Source of the DNA: a virus
Taxonomy: Duplodnaviria > Heunggongvirae > Uroviricota > Caudoviricetes
Virus record (IMG/VR): IMGVR_UViG_2529292885_000013
Length of the DNA stretch: 6,083 nucleotides
Direction: 5' to 3' (one strand)
The position numbers and the translations under genes were made by a program. This document shows, one piece after another, positions 564 through 6,083 of this stretch. Numbering within the stretch: position 1 is the first letter of the stretch; the number at the start of each line of letters is the position of its first letter. The notes under the pieces were generated by a model. That model did no database searches. It was given only the letters and a program-made list of their open reading frames with translations, and was not told the origin of the DNA.

Positions 564-1304
564 TCACATACCCTGACGTCCAACGTTTGACCGCCAGCTC
601 TCCCAGTTAAAATTCACCCAACGACCACCATTCATGGTCATACGGTCCATCACCCGATCTCCGAGGAGTGTGCTCATCGCTGCGTGATTCAGGTTCGTCA
701 GCATTCCGACACTACGCATCGAAGCCGTTCTGCGGTCGACTATCTGGTTCAGCGTGACCTGCTCGTTGCGCGTATCCCGCTGCATGCCAATTTCATCAAG
801 GACCAGAAGGTCAACTCCACAAAGCTCCTGTAAAAATTTTTCCCCGGACTGGCCGTTGTCGTAGCCGTCATGCAACACGCTCATGACATCGGACACGGTG
901 ACGATAATCACGCTTCTCCCCTTCGCCATCAGCCGATTGCCAATCGCTGCTGCCAGGTGATTTTTACCGGTACCAGGTTTACCGCTGAACACGAAGTTTG
1001 TACATCCGGTCATCAATTCATCGGCAATGGATTTCGCCTGGCTCAGAGCATGGCGCTGACCGTCGTTCTGCACCCGGTAGTTCCCGAATGAGCACTTCCT
1101 GTGAAGCGGCTGGATGCCCGCACGGTTCAGGATTTTTTCAACCCGCACCTGATGATTCAGGCGGTTAATCTCCTCGCTGCGTTTTCGTCCTTCAGCAAGT
1201 TGCCATTCCCGCCACTCCTCCACCGTCCGGTACGGTGGAACCGCCCCCTGTGGTGCAAGTCTGCGAATACGTTCAAGAACCCCAACTGCCGCAATGTTTT
1301 TCAT
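564..1304 (-). CDS. DnaC-like replicative helicase loader (lambda P-equivalent, IstB/DnaC AAA+ ATPase)
   Basis: 246-aa ORF with Walker A (FSGKPGTGKNHLAAAIG) and Walker B (DLLVLDEIG) motifs. Start ATG lies 6 nt after the stop of the upstream O-like gene with a G-rich SD, an operon arrangement typical of lambdoid replication modules. Similar in size and position to Rac YdaV (from memory). Confidence 0.9.
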   Translation of the reverse strand: MKNIAAVGVLERIRRLAPQGAVPPYRTVEEWREWQLAEGRKRSEEINRLNHQVRVEKILNRAGIQPLHRKCSFGNYRVQNDGQRHALSQAKSIADELMTGCTNFVFSGKPGTGKNHLAAAIGNRLMAKGRSVIIVTVSDVMSVLHDGYDNGQSGEKFLQELCGVDLLVLDEIGMQRDTRNEQVTLNQIVDRRTASMRSVGMLTNLNHAAMSTLLGDRVMDRMTMNGGRWVNFNWESWRSNVGRQGM

Positions 1305-1310
1305 GACACG

Positions 1311-2288
1311 TCACCCCCTGAATCCCGGCGGTATTTCAGTGTCCGGTTCAGAAATGTGATTCACGCAACGCTGCGCGGGCGAACGCCCCAGGCGGATAAC
1401 CAGTTCATCCCATTTTTCCCGGAGTTTTGCCGGACTCATGATGTTTTTTACCCAGAACGAATCCCGCTGGAGACGCCCAAACATTTCACAAATTTGTCTG
1501 TGAGTTCTGCCATCCAGCATCCGCATTGTCCGCACGTCATTGGCCCATGCAGTCCAGTTGGGTTCTTTCGGTCTCGTGATCTCGCCATCATCGCTGGCCG
1601 CCTGCTCGTAAAGACTCACGATTCGTCCCCAGATCCACTGTGCGCACACCAAATCTTCCTGACTTCCCCACTGGCGTTTTTTCGCACTGAACACAACCGC
1701 GTCAGGGTGTCGGGTTAAAAAATTCTGTTCAGCCGTCTGCGGGTCCGGTTGCGAAGCGTCCGGACAAGAAGATCTTTTATCTGACGGATCAGGTTTTAAT
1801 ACTGACGGATCGGGGTCAATCATCGCCCCCCTAATCGGCAGTTTGTTATCAACAGTTGATCCATCAAAATTTGACGGGTCAACCGTTGAGGGGGCAATAT
1901 TTGACGGGTCAACTGTTAACGGGTCATTTTTTGCCGGGCTAATTTTTCTTTTCGGTTTATATGACTCACGCGCCGCCGCAGCAGCTGCTTCGAGTTTTTC
2001 CACATTAAGCCGATAGATATTGCTTACATTACGCCCACCGACCTTACGCTCTTCCTTCGTCAGCCAGCCCTCTTTCGCCAGTTCTGCAATAGCCGATTTC
2101 ACTGTGGATTCACTTCTTGCACCGATCTGACGCCGGATAGTTTCAATGGCAGGCCATGACACGCCCTCGTCATTGCTGTAGTCTGCAAGACGGGCCATAA
2201 CCGCCACCCTGGATAAGATCATGCCGGTGAAGGCGCACCCTTCCCAGACAAGACCATGAAGCTTGCTGCTCATAAAACCCCCGAACAC
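1311..2288 (-). CDS. Phage replication initiator (lambda O-like replisome organiser) with N-terminal HTH domain; start either GTG at 2288 or, more likely, ATG at 2273
   Basis: 325-aa ORF. N-terminal winged-HTH-like segment (LSRVAVMARLADYSNDEGVSWPAIETIRRQIGARSESTVKSAIAELAKEGWLTKEE), a central low-complexity linker (AAAAAARE...PLTVDPSNIAPSTVDPSNFDGSTVDN) encoded by iteron DNA, and a C-terminal domain. Sits immediately upstream of the DnaC-like gene. The ATG at 2273 is preceded by GGGGG; the GTG at 2288 has no SD. Confidence 0.85.
   Translation of the reverse strand: MFGGFMSSKLHGLVWEGCAFTGMILSRVAVMARLADYSNDEGVSWPAIETIRRQIGARSESTVKSAIAELAKEGWLTKEERKVGGRNVSNIYRLNVEKLEAAAAAARESYKPKRKISPAKNDPLTVDPSNIAPSTVDPSNFDGSTVDNKLPIRGAMIDPDPSVLKPDPSDKRSSCPDASQPDPQTAEQNFLTRHPDAVVFSAKKRQWGSQEDLVCAQWIWGRIVSLYEQAASDDGEITRPKEPNWTAWANDVRTMRMLDGRTHRQICEMFGRLQRDSFWVKNIMSPAKLREKWDELVIRLGRSPAQRCVNHISEPDTEIPPGFRG
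1781..1965. repeat. Putative prophage origin of replication: iteron cluster inside the O-like gene plus adjacent AT-rich stretch
   Basis: TTGACGGGTCAAC(C/T)GTT occurs at 1871-1887 and 1901-1917 (30-bp period). Related palindromic units ATCAACAGTTGAT (1848-1860), TCAACCGTTGA (1880-1890) and AACGGGTCA (1918-1926). CTGACGGATC is repeated at 1781-1790 and 1802-1811. AT-rich segment ~1925-1965 (cattttttgccgggctaatttttcttttcggtttatatgac). Lambda ori likewise lies in the middle of gene O. Confidence 0.6.
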
Positions 2289-2295
2289 CGTGCTT

Positions 2296-2721
2296 TTAGT
2301 GCATCACCACAGCATTCCCTGCCGGGCCGCCGCGATTCATCTGGTCATACAAAACAACCGCTGACGCAACAAAATCATCGACATCCTTCACCAGCCGATC
2401 CCTCCGTTCGACGATCTCACGGTAATATTCAGAACTGTGGCTGCGCATACGGGCCACCAGCAAAGGCGGCATCGCCTTTTCGATCGCCGGTAACAGAGCC
2501 TGCATTTTTTCAACAGCATCAGGGGTGTCTTTATCCAGCCAACGGAAAATTTTCTGGGTATTACGGGCCAGGGCTTCCGGATGGCTGTCGTCATACAGTT
2601 CCGGGAACGTCATTCCCAGCTCGAAATACGCTTTGGTAATTTTCGCAGCCGGTACTTTTTCGCCGTCCGGATGCGCCCAGACATTCATCGCCATGCGGAT
2701 GTGTTCATGCTTGATTTTCAT
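2296..2721 (-). CDS. ydaT: YdaT-like protein (occupies the cII position of the Rac-type immunity region)
   Basis: 141-aa ORF immediately downstream of, and overlapping by 4 bp (ATGA) with, the Cro-like gene; 7 nt upstream of the O-like gene. Size and position match Rac YdaT (~140 aa). Family assignment is from memory. Confidence 0.65.
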   Translation of the reverse strand: MKIKHEHIRMAMNVWAHPDGEKVPAAKITKAYFELGMTFPELYDDSHPEALARNTQKIFRWLDKDTPDAVEKMQALLPAIEKAMPPLLVARMRSHSSEYYREIVERRDRLVKDVDDFVASAVVLYDQMNRGGPAGNAVVMH

Positions 2722-3020
2722 GAATCAACTCCATCAGATAAGCATGCACTACAATCACCTTCAGCATGAACTACATGTGTTTGCCCCAAACGAATGCCGC
2801 TCGCATACTCAGGCCAAATAAGCTCCCAATCATGGGGTCGTAGCTCCGCCCTACTTACTTGGCCTTCCGTCGCAGATTCGATCATAAGGGCGCGGGTTGG
2901 AGATATAGCTGTTCGTCCAGACGCCATTTGCGATAAGTAAGATGGCGATACACCAAGTCTGGCCGCGAATTTCTTAGCATCACCAACCCTTAATGATTTA
3001 ATAAACTCTTTTAATGTCAT
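2718..3020 (-). CDS. ydaS: Cro-like HTH transcriptional regulator (YdaS family)
   Basis: 100-aa ORF with an HTH segment (AKKFAARLGVSPSYLSQMASGRTAISPTRALMIESAT) and an ELRPHDWELIWPE motif that I recall from YdaS/Cro-like prophage regulators. SD GAGGAAGG precedes the ATG. Divergent from the CI-like repressor gene across an operator-rich intergenic region. Confidence 0.75.
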   Translation of the reverse strand: MTLKEFIKSLRVGDAKKFAARLGVSPSYLSQMASGRTAISPTRALMIESATEGQVSRAELRPHDWELIWPEYASGIRLGQTHVVHAEGDCSACLSDGVDS

Positions 3021-3117
3021 ACCTTCCTCGGTTTAGTGTTTTTTTGCGAGTTTAGTGTTTAATAAACCATTAAGTCAAGTATTTGCTTGTTTAGTGATTA
3101 CTAAAGATAATTACCAC
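3021..3117. promoter_or_regulatory. Divergent immunity promoter/operator region (pR-like on minus strand, pRM-like on plus strand) with repeated TTTAGT/ACTAAA half-sites
   Basis: Plus strand: -35 TTGCTT (3083-3088), 17-bp spacer, -10 GATAAT (3106-3111), ATG at 3118. Minus strand: -35 TTGACT (3078..3073), 18-bp spacer, -10 TAAACT (3054..3049). Inverted repeat TTTAGT-GATT-ACTAAA at 3090-3105 fills the plus-promoter spacer; further TTTAGT copies at 3032-3037 and 3051-3056; GTTTA-A-TAAAC palindrome at 3056-3066. Confidence 0.6.
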
Positions 3118-3489
3118 ATGCAAAAAAAAGAAATTCGCCGTTTACGTCTCAAGGAGTGGTTTAAAGATAAAACTCTGCCACCCAAAGAGAAGAGCTACCT
3201 ATCTCAACTAATGAGTGGGAGAGCCTCGTTTGGAGAAAAGGCTGCCAGAAGAATAGAGCAAACATACGGGATGCCGGAAGGGTATCTGGATGCGGAATAC
3301 GCAGAACAACCGGGGGGTTCTCCACCACATGCAGGGTTAACGTCTAATCAACTGGAATTATTGCAGATTTTTTCAGCCTTCCCTGAGGATGAGCAACGCC
3401 AGATAATCAGCGAGTTAAAGCAGAAAAAAGAATCAATGGAAGATCTCATAGCGAGATGGATTGCGGCGCAAAAATGCCGCCGCGCCTGA
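3118..3489 (+). CDS. paaR: CI-like HTH (XRE-family) repressor; candidate PaaR-type regulator of the downstream ParE toxin-antitoxin pair and candidate prophage repressor
   Basis: 123 aa from the ATG at 3118 (MQKKEIRRLRLKEWF...). HTH segment SYLSQLMSGRASFGEKAARRIEQTYGMPEGYLD. Located exactly at the cI position, divergent from the cro-like gene. No SD upstream and a -10 hexamer 6 nt before the ATG suggest a leaderless mRNA. The in-frame upstream ATG at 3055 (144 aa) lies inside the operator region and lacks an SD. Confidence 0.7.
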   Translation: MQKKEIRRLRLKEWFKDKTLPPKEKSYLSQLMSGRASFGEKAARRIEQTYGMPEGYLDAEYAEQPGGSPPHAGLTSNQLELLQIFSAFPEDEQRQIISELKQKKESMEDLIARWIAAQKCRRA

Positions 3490-3509
3490 GTTATAAAACC
3501 GGAGGAAAC

Positions 3510-3701
3510 ATGAATAGAGCCCTTTCACCAATGGTTTCTGAATTTGAAACCATTGAACAAGAAAACAGTTACAACGAATGGCTGCGTGCGAAAGTAGCAA
3601 CGAGCCTTGCAGATCCGCGCCCAGCAATTCCCCATGACGAAGTTGAGCGCAGAATGGCAGAACGCTTTGCTAAGATGCGCAAGGAACGGAGCAAGCAGTA
3701 A
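3510..3701 (+). CDS. paaA: Small antitoxin of a ParE-family toxin-antitoxin pair (PaaA-like, ParE-associated antitoxin)
   Basis: 63-aa ORF from the ATG at 3510 with a GGAGG SD 5 nt upstream (MNRALSPMVSEFETIEQENSYNEWLRAKVATSLADPRPAIPHDEVERRMAERFAKMRKERSKQ). Its stop TAA (3699-3701) is 1 nt before the toxin ATG (3703), indicating translational coupling. Small, charged and helix-prone. Matches my recollection of the 63-aa PaaA2 antitoxin of E. coli O157:H7; paralogue number (1 vs 2) cannot be resolved here. Confidence 0.7.
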   Translation: MNRALSPMVSEFETIEQENSYNEWLRAKVATSLADPRPAIPHDEVERRMAERFAKMRKERSKQ

Positions 3702-3702
3702 A

Positions 3703-3981
3703 ATGTTACCCGTGTTATGGCTTGAAAGCGCAGATACCGACCTAGATGATATAACTAGTTATATTGCTCGTTTCGACATAGATGCGGCTGAACGCTTATG
3801 GCAGCGATTAAGGGGTTGTGTGCTGCCGTTATCCGAACATCCGTATTTATACCCACCAAGCGACAGAGTACCTGGCTTGCGTGAGATTGTAGCCCACCCT
3901 AACTATATAATTCTATACCGCGTAACAACATCAAGCGTTGAAGTAGTAAACGTGATCCACGCAAGACGCCAGTTTCCCTAA
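3703..3981 (+). CDS. parE: ParE/RelE-superfamily toxin (ParE-like)
   Basis: 92-aa ORF from the ATG at 3703 (MLPVLWLESADTDLDDITSYIARFDIDAAERLWQRLRGCVLPLSEHPYLYPPSDRVPGLREIVAHPNYIILYRVTTSSVEVVNVIHARRQFP). Shows the ParE hallmarks: N-terminal W...A..DL..I..YI, central P.LG...R...LRE, C-terminal Y.I.YRV......V.V..V.HARR. Tightly coupled to the upstream antitoxin gene. Confidence 0.85.
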   Translation: MLPVLWLESADTDLDDITSYIARFDIDAAERLWQRLRGCVLPLSEHPYLYPPSDRVPGLREIVAHPNYIILYRVTTSSVEVVNVIHARRQFP

Positions 3982-4006
3982 CTTTCACTACCAATAGAAA
4001 CATAAC

Positions 4007-4046
4007 AACCGCAACGACTTTATCAAAAGCGTTGTGTTTGTTATGT
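4007..4046 (+). terminator. Weak candidate intrinsic terminator downstream of the toxin gene
   Basis: Imperfect hairpin: AACCGCAACG (4007-4016), 13-nt loop, CGTTGTGTTTG (4030-4040; 5 perfect bp plus G-U and mismatch-interrupted pairs), followed by a T-rich tail (tttgttatgt). Confidence 0.25.
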
Positions 4047-4050
4047 CCCG

Positions 4051-4096
4051 CGGTTTAGTTTTTACTTGACTTAAGTTTAATGTTTATTAAACTAAA
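4051..4096 (+). promoter_or_regulatory. pL-like outward promoter with operator half-sites (oL-like), related in sequence to the pR-like element
   Basis: -35 TTGACT (4066-4071), 16-bp spacer, -10 TAAACT (4088-4093). The stretch ACTTGACTTAA...GTTTATTAAAC...CTAAA is shared with the minus-strand reading of the oR region (3050-3082). TTTAGT at 4054-4059 and ACTAAA at 4091-4096 match the oR half-sites. Confidence 0.4.
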
Positions 4097-4411
4097 AATA
4101 CCAACCCACCCCGCCCCACAGAACGCAGGGAAATACTTCGAGTTACCCGGCAGTGGTCAGGGGTTAAGTAGCCAGCCCGAGGCGTATGAACATGACGGCA
4201 GGGTTCAACTTTAATAACTATGCAGCAGTTTTTTGTTCCGCTACCCCGGCGTTAAGGGGAAACAGAGGGTTTCTCAGTGGGCGAAGTCAAACATCAGAAT
4301 GGAAGGCATCCCGGGATCGGCAAAGAAGCAGCAATGGCGCTTTATATTGACATCAGCGCCATTGCAGGACAGGTAAGAGTTATCAGAGCGGTAACTAAGC
4401 GGTATGCGCCT

Positions 4412-4612
4412 TTACTTCAGAAAGTCTCTGGTGAGTGCACCGAAGATATTGTCAACGATTTCGTCATCGAACTGCGAGGACTCATCTTCAGTTACAAGGT
4501 GACCACAATTTTTGCAGATGGCTCCCGCGAAACTGTCAGAGCCCTGCGGCTTAAAGGATGTGTCAAAGACTTCGCCACCACATTCTGGGCAAGAAAACTT
4601 GATTGTATTCAT
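4412..4612 (-). CDS. Small zinc-ribbon protein (CxxC...CxxC), hypothetical
   Basis: 66 aa from the ATG at 4612 (the ORF track starts 2 codons earlier at a TTG). SD AGGA 8 nt upstream. Two Cys pairs (CPEC and CKNC) about 20 residues apart. Codon usage is typical E. coli, whereas the overlapping plus-strand ORF 4277..4633 is rich in rare AGA/AGG/CGA codons. Confidence 0.55.
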   Translation of the reverse strand: MNTIKFSCPECGGEVFDTSFKPQGSDSFAGAICKNCGHLVTEDESSQFDDEIVDNIFGALTRDFLK

Positions 4613-4946: not shown

Positions 4947-5354
4947 ATGGAATTTAAAGATTTACCAACGCCATTACAGGAAATGGCATCGAATATAGTT
5001 CGTTCACAACTGGCTACTCTTGACCTTAGTACCGCAGAAAAAGAAACCATCGATAATATGGTTCGTAATGTGCGCAATGCTTTTTCTGGGCTATATGGTT
5101 CTGATAATCAAAAGCAGGAAAGCGATGTTAATAAACGGGTAATTTCTGTTTGCGTGAATGGCCATGTTCTTTCATCAATCAAAACAGAAACGGCGACAGT
5201 CTTCGATTGCCTTTGCATTGTACAGAGCCTTGTTGATGCCCTGTTTCGTTCAGTGAATTTAGAAAATGATGCAAATCTGCGAGGGCGCATAATAGCACAT
5301 CCATATGCACATACTTTAGGCTCTGTGGATATCAAAGATCCCACAAATCTTTAA
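4947..5354 (+). CDS. Hypothetical 135-aa protein, AT-rich (moron-like) gene
   Basis: ATG at 4947 with GAGG SD 6 nt upstream. Long ORF in a locally AT-rich block (roughly 38-40% GC by eye versus over 50% in flanks). No family recognised. Confidence 0.6.
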   Translation: MEFKDLPTPLQEMASNIVRSQLATLDLSTAEKETIDNMVRNVRNAFSGLYGSDNQKQESDVNKRVISVCVNGHVLSSIKTETATVFDCLCIVQSLVDALFRSVNLENDANLRGRIIAHPYAHTLGSVDIKDPTNL

Positions 5355-5565: not shown

Positions 5566-6083
5566 TCACCCTCCTGAGGGTTGGTAATTAAGGAGTTCTC
5601 CACGGGTGAAGTGGAGTGCGTGCGCCGGACACGGGTGAACATCCGGCACTGACAGTTTACTGAAAGGATATTTCTCTGAAAAGTCAGAGCATAACGCGAA
5701 AGCGCACGGCGAGGTTGCTGGTTCATAGATAGCCTGTCGTTAAATTTTCGTCGACCGTGCGCTTCCGGTTGTGGCACTCCGCGAAATGGCGCAGCGGTAA
5801 GTATGGCGGGGTTATTCCTTCCCCGTTGAGGACACCGGGTTGTCAGGTTGACCATACGCTTAAGTGACAACCCCGCTGCAACGCCCTCTGTTATCAATTT
5901 TCTGGTGACGTTTGGCGGCATCTGTTTGCCCATGAACTGATGTCCGCCCTTTTTAAAGTGAATTTTGTGATGCAGTGAATGCGGCTAAGCGCACGCGGAA
6001 CAGTTAAAGCTAAAAACAGTGTTATGGGTGGATTCTCTGTATCCGGCGTTAATTGTTAACTGGTTAACGTCACCTGGAGGCAC

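Follow-up and report, generated by a model that had tools for sequence, protein, structure and literature searches.

The locus analyzed here is the same DNA as the immunity region of CP-933P (Sp12), a cryptic lambdoid prophage of Escherichia coli O157:H7 that has been characterized experimentally by Jurenas et al. (mBio 2021, PMC8630535). These authors defined four 18-bp inverted repeats together with sites OR1-3 in the right operator region (OR), named PL933P and sites OL1-3 in the left operator region (OL), and mapped the starts of PR933P and PRM933P by 5' RACE (rapid amplification of cDNA ends), with the PR start consistent with prediction. At OR, electrophoretic mobility shift assays (EMSA) and DNase I footprinting revealed protection of ~78 bp by the repressor PaaR2 and ~65 bp by the Cro-like protein YdaS in the 97-bp paaR2-ydaS intergenic region, and gfp fusions of PR, PRM and PL, tested with PaaR2 or YdaS, showed repression (PMC8630535). 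They also drew an analogy with lambda that includes possible looping by octameric PaaR2, a protein reported to octamerize in solution (PMC8630535). Here we analyze a stretch of 6,083 nucleotides from IMG/VR record IMGVR_UViG_2529292885_000013 (the window), focusing on two promoter-operator cassettes that flank its repressor and toxin-antitoxin (TA) operon, paaR2-paaA2-parE2, and on the RNA that follows one of them. The window is itself the CP-933P immunity region, and we consider it close to certain that the two cassettes constitute an OR/OL bistable switch in which PaaR2 acts on 18-bp palindromes at two clusters. Analysis of OR and OL in itself adds little, since the CP-933P logic was published with experiments in 2021 (PMC8630535). 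The more useful lead is a leader RNA located directly 3' of PL that is common in E. coli prophages.

Identity of the locus was established at several levels. Window positions 2700-4300 are 100% identical to E. coli O157:H7 by megablast, and all 15 of the tested oligonucleotides of Jurenas et al. match the window exactly. Their EMSA and footprint primers map around 2979-3167, their immunity-region primers map at 2274 and 4276, and their PL primers map at 3982-4002 and 4078-4099, which defines the PL-gfp insert as 3982-4099. Within 2274-4276 there is no difference from the published CP-933P/Sp12 immunity region. The order across the window is ydaT-ydaS, then PR/OR/PRM, then paaR2-paaA2-parE2, and then OL/PL. 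This is the layout of a lambdoid switch, with divergent PR and PRM promoters situated between the repressor gene and a cro-like gene and overlapped by repeated operators, and with the same operators clustered again over an outward PL beyond the repressor operon. The operon itself has the composition of a paaR-paaA-parE three-component TA module, as a regulator, a PaaA2-family antitoxin and a ParE-family toxin are encoded in a single operon. The first nucleotide of the PRM transcript, A3118, is the A of the paaR2 ATG, giving a leaderless mRNA in agreement with the published PRM start at the paaR2 start codon and with a PaaR2 N-terminus that reads MQKKE (PMC8630535). The PL transcript probably starts near A4100.

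A sequence-only reading of the window had proposed two related, outward-facing cassettes of the oR/pR and oL/pL type around the repressor-TA operon. Both strings that it quoted are present, ACTTGACTTAATGGTTTATTAAACACTAAACT at 3049-3080 (-) and ACTTGACTTAAGTTTAATGTTTATTAAACTAAAAA at 4064-4098 (+), the latter inside the published PL-gfp insert. A consensus promoter scan returns the same outward hexamers in each, with minus-strand TTGACT-18-TAAACT running from 3078 to 3049 and plus-strand TTGACT-16-TAAACT from 4066 to 4093. Given these strands and positions, both promoters point away from paaR2-paaA2-parE2. The span assigned to the pair, 3031-4096, does include the elements but takes in the entire repressor/TA operon as well, with the elements themselves confined to ~3031-3111 and 4053-4093. 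Likewise, the TTTAGT/ACTAAA half-sites on which that reading relied occur in both patches (seven copies in the window against 2.8 +/- 1.6 expected, six of the seven inside the two patches), but the bare hexamer is not the unit, the operator being an 18-bp palindrome. A local alignment of the inverted 97-bp intergenic region with 3982-4130 scores 30; dinucleotide shuffling attained this score in 3 of 2000 trials and mononucleotide shuffling in 0 of 500. The direct orientation aligns better, with 3026-3067 against 4048-4092 scoring 37 (0/500 shuffles). The operators of OR and OL are collinear and their promoters are mirrored, an arrangement that is possible because the sites are palindromic and the hexamer TAAACT, the -10 of both PL and PR, forms the outer part of an operator half-site.

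The operators were inventoried by comparing each 18-mer in the 6083-bp window with a palindrome built on the published half-site GTTTAGTAA. All four top matches to the 18-bp palindrome GTTTAGTnnnnACTAAAC fall within the two cassettes, starting at 3089 (16/18), 3050 (15/18), 4053 (14/18) and 4075 (14/18), with a score of 12 for the next best site window-wide. A search with the pattern GTTTAGTNNNNACTAAAC allowing up to three mismatches returns only these same four positions (3050, 3089, 4053 and 4075), where 0.18 are expected and where 0 of 200 shuffles gave at least four. The repeats in OR begin at 3031, 3050, ~3070 and 3089, a spacing of ~19-20 bp or roughly two helical turns. The first of these, IR4, sits just downstream of the PR start and has only its left half-site conserved (7/9), while the operator at 3050-3067 lies inside the PaaR2 and YdaS footprints (PMC8630535).

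Conservation of these sites was followed by scanning viral contigs for relatives of PaaR2, which provided 80 loci with ~3.3 kb available per locus and in which a site was counted as conserved when it scored at least 14/18 as a palindrome. All 39 distinct loci with repressors 97-100% identical to PaaR2 have palindromes upstream and also 929-957 nucleotides downstream of the repressor start codon, and the 39 loci together contain one palindrome in total outside of OR and OL; shuffled sequence gives 0.01 per kb. Among homologues with 47-52% identity, upstream palindromes are present in 13/13 and downstream palindromes in 12/13 distinct loci, with no palindrome elsewhere in the ~3.3 kb of each locus. 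The downstream sites of this group occur at +408 to +690, directly after the repressor gene and without TA genes between, and include a palindrome like 4075-4092 at the equivalent place. These distant sites read GTTTACTAATTACTAAAC, GTTTATCAATTACTAAAC, GTTTAGTAATGAGTAAAC and similar, giving a family consensus of ~GTTTAnTAATTACTAAAC. The presence of sites on both sides in the 47-52% homologues indicates that the two-sided layout is ancestral to the PaaR2 family, and shows paaA2-parE2 to have been inserted, in the CP-933P lineage, between the repressor and OL. What is added here to the published work is therefore the site inventory with its statistics and the phylogenetic footprint of GTTTAnTAATTACTAAAC and of the two-sided layout. 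A TA insert between repressor and OL also supports the view of the authors that the TA module is embedded in, and may stabilize, the immunity region. As a separate observation, three viral-contig loci of a related immunity type, with a PaaR-like repressor of 71-74% identity (L226, L231 and L234, ~1501-2900), have an extra DicA-like helix-turn-helix (HTH) gene that separates the repressor from the PaaA/ParE genes.

In the mechanism that we favor, PaaR2 dimers would bind 18-bp palindromic operators (half-site ~GTTTAGTAA) in the two clusters. The sites in OR overlap both the leftward PR, which serves ydaS-ydaT-O-P, and the rightward leaderless PRM, which serves paaR2-paaA2-parE2. The two sites of OL, directly past parE2, lie over the -35 and over the spacer/-10 of the outward PL. 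Operator occupancy would exclude RNA polymerase from PR and PL so that the early operons are kept silent, while low levels of PaaR2 would stimulate PRM. The Cro-like YdaS would occupy overlapping sites with the opposite order of preference, and this opposition is what would make the switch bistable. Additionally, PaaR2 octamers may loop OL to OR over ~1 kb. The published data agree with much of this model, as the lambda-style pairing of OR/PR and OL/PL around the repressor-TA operon through a shared motif has been established for the same DNA, and the PL933P-gfp fusion is active and repressed ~100-fold by PaaR2 or YdaS (PMC8630535). The earlier observation, its interpretation and the reporter experiment that it suggested were already published in 2021; the finding is correct but not new.

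Several points nevertheless count against the model as drawn. Two overlapping repeat types, IR1-4 and OR1-3, have been described at OR, and according to the authors the precise binding sequences are still to be determined (PMC8630535). PaaR2 and YdaS footprints, an approach that the sequence-only reading had also suggested, are published for OR only, and the available text of PMC8630535 contains no EMSA or footprint of PaaR2 on OL, no mapped PL start and no test of looping. Repression of PL was shown in vivo alone, with regulators expressed from plasmids (PMC8630535). Finally, the downstream cassette of the 71-74% group has diverged below the palindrome threshold, and thus the operator consensus is not universal in the PaaR2 family; by inspection, the PL cassette of this group reads TTGACC/T followed by GTTTAGTTTATTTTTGTATAAACTAA, with the same leader after it. 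Direct binding of PaaR2 at OL is presumably how PL is repressed.

Among alternatives to the switch, the one that fares best is that the downstream cassette serves mainly as an auxiliary looping operator for control of PR and PRM and is not a meaningful promoter, as might occur in a cryptic prophage with decayed downstream genes. The reported octamerization of PaaR2 in solution (PMC8630535) and the OL-OR separation of ~1 kb are both compatible with such a role, as are the pseudogenes in this prophage and the insertion sequence (IS) element in a sister strain. We regard this possibility as very improbable, however, as unrepressed PL drives gfp strongly (PMC8630535), the PL hexamers persist in distant homologues as well as in 39/39 near-identical loci, and PL is followed by the conserved leader, ydfC and a DicF-like RNA and, in the sister strain, by dicB. 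Looping and promoter roles of the downstream cassette are moreover not exclusive. It is more improbable still that the shared motif is an autoregulatory operator of the PaaA2-ParE2 complex and not an operator of the prophage repressor. Antitoxins do normally autoregulate TA operons through palindromes near their own promoter, but PaaA2 (63 amino acids) matches the PaaA2 "stability determinant" family alone, with no DNA-binding family detected in Pfam, regulation has been assigned experimentally to PaaR2 and YdaS (PMC8630535), and the 47-52% homologues retain the operators without TA genes between the repressor and OL. Chance resemblance of two AT-rich intergenic stretches, with no promoter at 4064-4098, could account for a single 12-mer inverted match (I10; by estimate expected about once per 6-kb window) and for hexamers that match the sigma-70 consensus at just 9/12, but has virtually no chance of being correct given alignment scores that exceed those of shuffles, four palindromes against 0.18 expected, a cassette kept in distant homologues and a published PL-gfp fusion that is both active and repressible (PMC8630535). 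The OR/OL switch governed by PaaR2 is thus the reading that we retain.

The repressor at the center of this switch is a functional analogue of lambda CI that is not a member of the CI/LexA family, as it has no S24 peptidase domain. PaaR2 (123 amino acids) matches no Pfam family at E<=0.01, Peptidase_S24 included. Residues 1-71 match PDB 7NKV/8C3K, "Phage repressor protein CI," with an E value of 5e-41, and structures of the PaaR2 N-terminal domain have been deposited under this same name (7NKV, 8C3K and 8C3L). Residues 72-119 show a weak, sub-threshold match to the DicA C-terminus (NF007257 83-130, E 1.4e-6), which hints at a possible shared oligomerization domain.

The PL transcript opens with a conserved structured RNA of ~106 nucleotides whose conservation extends to ~4270. 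When four prophages with different regulators (PaaR2, a LexA-family CI, RacR and an HK022-like HTH protein) are aligned, homology begins at ~4102, right after the PL -10. The segment ~4098-4262, with some matches reaching 4300, occurs by itself in 3732 of the 5426 complete genomes of E. coli searched by megablast and is always unannotated. Diverged copies were recovered with the core TAAGTAGCCAGCCNGAGGC from species-representative genomes of Arsenophonus, Phlomobacter, Serratia, Pectobacterium, Symbiopectobacterium and Superficieibacter, and a further diverged copy is present in an Actinobacillus phage (blastn against a phage collection). In copies with inspected flanks, an HTH repressor gene lies upstream and a sigma-70-like promoter with local repeats directly precedes the element. 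The design is general among prophages of this group: among 120 viral-contig loci, the position before the common leader is taken by no fewer than eight unrelated PL/operator cassettes that each have a repeat motif of their own. The published PL-gfp insert ends at 4099 and the leader was therefore excluded from that fusion.

A covariance model of the leader was built on nine copies from Arsenophonus and a structure drawn by hand, in which one helix closes the element, the loop CAAUACnnCGAGUUA tops a stack of three helices, and a small GCC/GGC helix is invariant. This model recovers full-length matches in each lineage. When 42 distinct sequences were fitted to the model, standard pairs occupied 92.7% of cells as compared to 74.9 +/- 0.8% in shuffles (0/500) and 26-43% with slid partners, and 145 cells had double changes versus 41 +/- 8 in shuffles and 16-29 in slid controls, pairing figures that lean towards the structure since the alignment was fitted to it. 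Changes on both sides were observed in 17 of 23 pairs of this same fitted alignment. Raw sequences at the same position can be read directly as GGCAAA/UUUGCC, GGCAAU/AUUGCC, GGCAGAA/UUCUGCC, CGCAU/AUGCG and CCAC/GUGG helices. Four helices of the leader covary, its unpaired nucleotides are nearly invariant, and its G-U pairs occur in the plus-strand sense, fitting an RNA that is read from PL. Folding of a plain MAFFT alignment with RNAalifold predicted only the invariant GCC/GGC helix because helices of different length were misaligned, a problem that was resolved with the covariance-model alignment. A cmscan of the whole window against Rfam 15 at E<=1 returned DicF (5900-5949) and two weak chance matches with none at 4100-4270, and a search with the covariance model for a second leader copy downstream of PR found none, leaving one copy in the window.

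Among early-operon RNAs, the leader was compared with put and nut. The leader resembles the put sites of HK022 and HK639 in that it starts a few nucleotides from the PL transcription start, and in some prophages an HK022-like PL cassette is followed by the leader at the place where HK022 has putL. It differs in having a closing helix, a three-tier hairpin and an invariant core where put has two stems, and in being present as a single copy in the window. Neither the put consensus sequence nor its two-stem fold is found in the leader. Homology to HK022/HK639 put was rejected, as there was no blastn link and no covariance-model match in the PL-putL region of either phage, and an AUGAAC...GGCA string common to the leader and put is not conserved at put-critical positions. 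The possibility that the leader replaces N/nut is weakened by Arsenophonus, in which a canonical boxA CGCTCTTTAAC comes after the leader copies together with a lambda-like boxB CGCTGAAAAAGCG and an N-like open reading frame (ORF) with the arginine-rich motif NARRRRHERRKAKQ, so that the leader coexists with N/nut instead of replacing it. A conserved leader-peptide start is also unlikely, since the first core AUG lacks conservation, a few copies have lost the second, and the frames downstream of the core AUGs differ (9, 11, 20 and 54 codons). The Rho-dependent terminator trac of Rac was rejected as a counterpart, as trac is inside racR and is read from PRM.

A second small module was observed after the leader in E. 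coli copies at ~4236-4262 (+), consisting of CGTTCCGCYA and a short covarying hairpin with stems CCCC/GGGG, GCCG/CGGC, GCC/GGC and GCCAG/CUGGC (loci L127, L135, L145, L148, L130, L140 and L244). Some loci with PaaR2 homologues have this module without the large leader element, and the equivalent place in Arsenophonus is occupied by the boxA/boxB and N-like ORF. The second module may represent a nut-like site. An N-like gene was not recognized in the window.

The covarying helices together with nearly invariant unpaired nucleotides suggest that the leader is recognized by a conserved host machine, and candidate roles include elongation/termination, mRNA stability or translation control of the early-left operon. 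We tentatively propose, with slightly more doubt than conviction, that this undescribed and widespread structured RNA represents a new class of cis-acting early-operon regulator that is distinct from put and nut. A literature search with leader sequence strings gave only an unrelated paper on a fish long noncoding RNA, and the list of put-like RNAs of King et al. 2011 was not compared; as no description of the leader RNA was found in the literature, the observation may be new.

The remaining features of the window were assigned from an ORF listing and Pfam and are collected with the promoters and operators in Table 1. Between the parE2 stop and OL is a hairpin of -24 kcal/mol (z -4.5, 0/200 shuffles equally stable) with a T-rich stretch that starts 7 nucleotides past the stem. 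This hairpin may terminate or stabilize the paaR2-paaA2-parE2 transcript. A DicF-like small RNA is present at 5900-5949 (+) over the full model length (43.5 bits, E 3.2e-7, slightly under the Rfam gathering score, 48). Its place downstream of PL recalls the dicB operon of Qin, with dicB itself beyond the window in related strains. The sequence TTGATTTTCATGAATCAA at 2711-2728 matches the published YdaT operator TTGATTN6AATCAA (PMC9986795) exactly and extends across the ydaS stop and the ydaT start, the place assigned to PRE933P. Five iteron-like repeats with 15-bp spacing (TCAACnGTTGAnGGG/TTTGACGGGTCAAC) occur at 1849-1938 within the O-like replication gene and resemble the iterons in lambda gene O (ori). 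A gene of the ECs_2282 family encoding a CxxC zinc-binding protein is located at 4412-4612 (-), on the opposite strand within the PL-driven region, with a 118-amino-acid ORF antisense to it. The immunity module is 100% identical to that of O157:H7 TR01 (L001), but the stretch between ydfC and dicB differs, and the window has a 135-amino-acid ORF at 4947-5354 plus extra sequence unlike TR01. To the right of ~4300 the best matches are other Shiga toxin-producing E. coli (STEC) strains, at 99.6% and not 100%. The differences from TR01 between ydfC and dicB show mosaic exchange just outside of the immunity cassette.

Table 1. Features of the 6,083-nucleotide window in order of position, with the basis of each assignment
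Feature	Position	Strand	Basis
DnaC/IstB-like ATPase	564-1304	-	ORF listing and Pfam
O-like replication protein	1311-2288	-	ORF listing and Pfam
ydaT (CII analogue)	2296-2721	-	Pfam YdaT_toxin E 2.8e-10; PMC9986795
ydaS (Cro analogue), first gene of PR operon	2718-3020	-	Pfam YdaS_toxin and HTH_3; PMC8630535
Operator repeat IR4 GTTTAGTGTTTTTTTGCG	3031-3048	.	Repeat family D1; palindrome score 10/18
PR933P	3049-3078	-	Promoter scan; -35 TTGACT 3078-3073, 18-nucleotide spacer, -10 TAAACT 3054-3049
Operator GTTTAGTGTTTAATAAAC, over PR spacer and -10	3050-3067	.	15/18; pattern match, 1 mismatch
PRM933P	3083-3118	+	Hexamers read from sequence; -35 TTGCTT 3083-3088, 17-nucleotide spacer, -10 GATAAT 3106-3111
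Operator GTTTAGTGATTACTAAAG, best in window, fills PRM spacer	3089-3106	.	16/18; pattern match
paaR2, CI-like repressor, 123 amino acids	3118-3489	+	Primer F-1-PaaR2 maps at 3118
paaA2 antitoxin	3510-3701	+	Pfam PaaA2 E 1e-19, 70.7 bits, cut-off 27
parE2 toxin	3703-3981	+	Pfam ParE_toxin E 1.9e-16, 60.9 bits, cut-off 23
Hairpin, near-perfect 22-bp stem, parE2 stop to OL	4000-4046	+	Inverted repeat I4; folding
OL operator GTTTAGTTTTTACTTGAC, over PL -35	4053-4070	.	14/18; pattern match
PL933P	4066-4093	+	Promoter scan; -35 TTGACT 4066-4071, 16-nucleotide spacer, -10 TAAACT 4088-4093
OL operator GTTTAATGTTTATTAAAC, over PL spacer and -10	4075-4092	.	14/18; pattern match
Conserved structured leader RNA, 5' end of PL transcript	4104-4209 (~106 nucleotides)	+	Covariance model 60.7 bits, E 4.5e-13

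For completeness, we compare this immunity region with those of lambda and the Rac prophage of E. coli K-12. As in lambda, several operators accompany divergent PR and PRM promoters, an outward PL past the repressor operon is overlaid by a second operator cluster, and accessory genes are located between the repressor and OL (rexAB in lambda, paaA2-parE2 in CP-933P). Both also have a leaderless repressor mRNA from PRM, a Cro-like protein that acts on the same operators and a repressor that octamerizes. CP-933P has four roughly equally spaced 18-bp repeats where lambda has three 17-bp sites, and the operator sequence is unrelated, as the sequence-only reading had proposed. The OL-OR distance is ~2.4 kb in lambda as compared to ~1 kb in CP-933P. 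A lambda-like N gene is not evident downstream in the window, and PaaR2, at 123 amino acids, is without the S24 autocleavage domain, so that RecA-mediated induction is not expected. Rac differs from CP-933P in its repressor family (RacR), in its TTAGGCnnnGCCTA-like operator and in that no TA module separates its repressor from PL. Rac and CP-933P nevertheless share a repressor with divergent ydaS-ydaT followed by O-like and DnaC-like genes, and a mirrored PL cassette, with Rac PL scoring 45 against inverted Rac PR (0/500 shuffles). In Rac, as in CP-933P, PL is followed by the same conserved leader.

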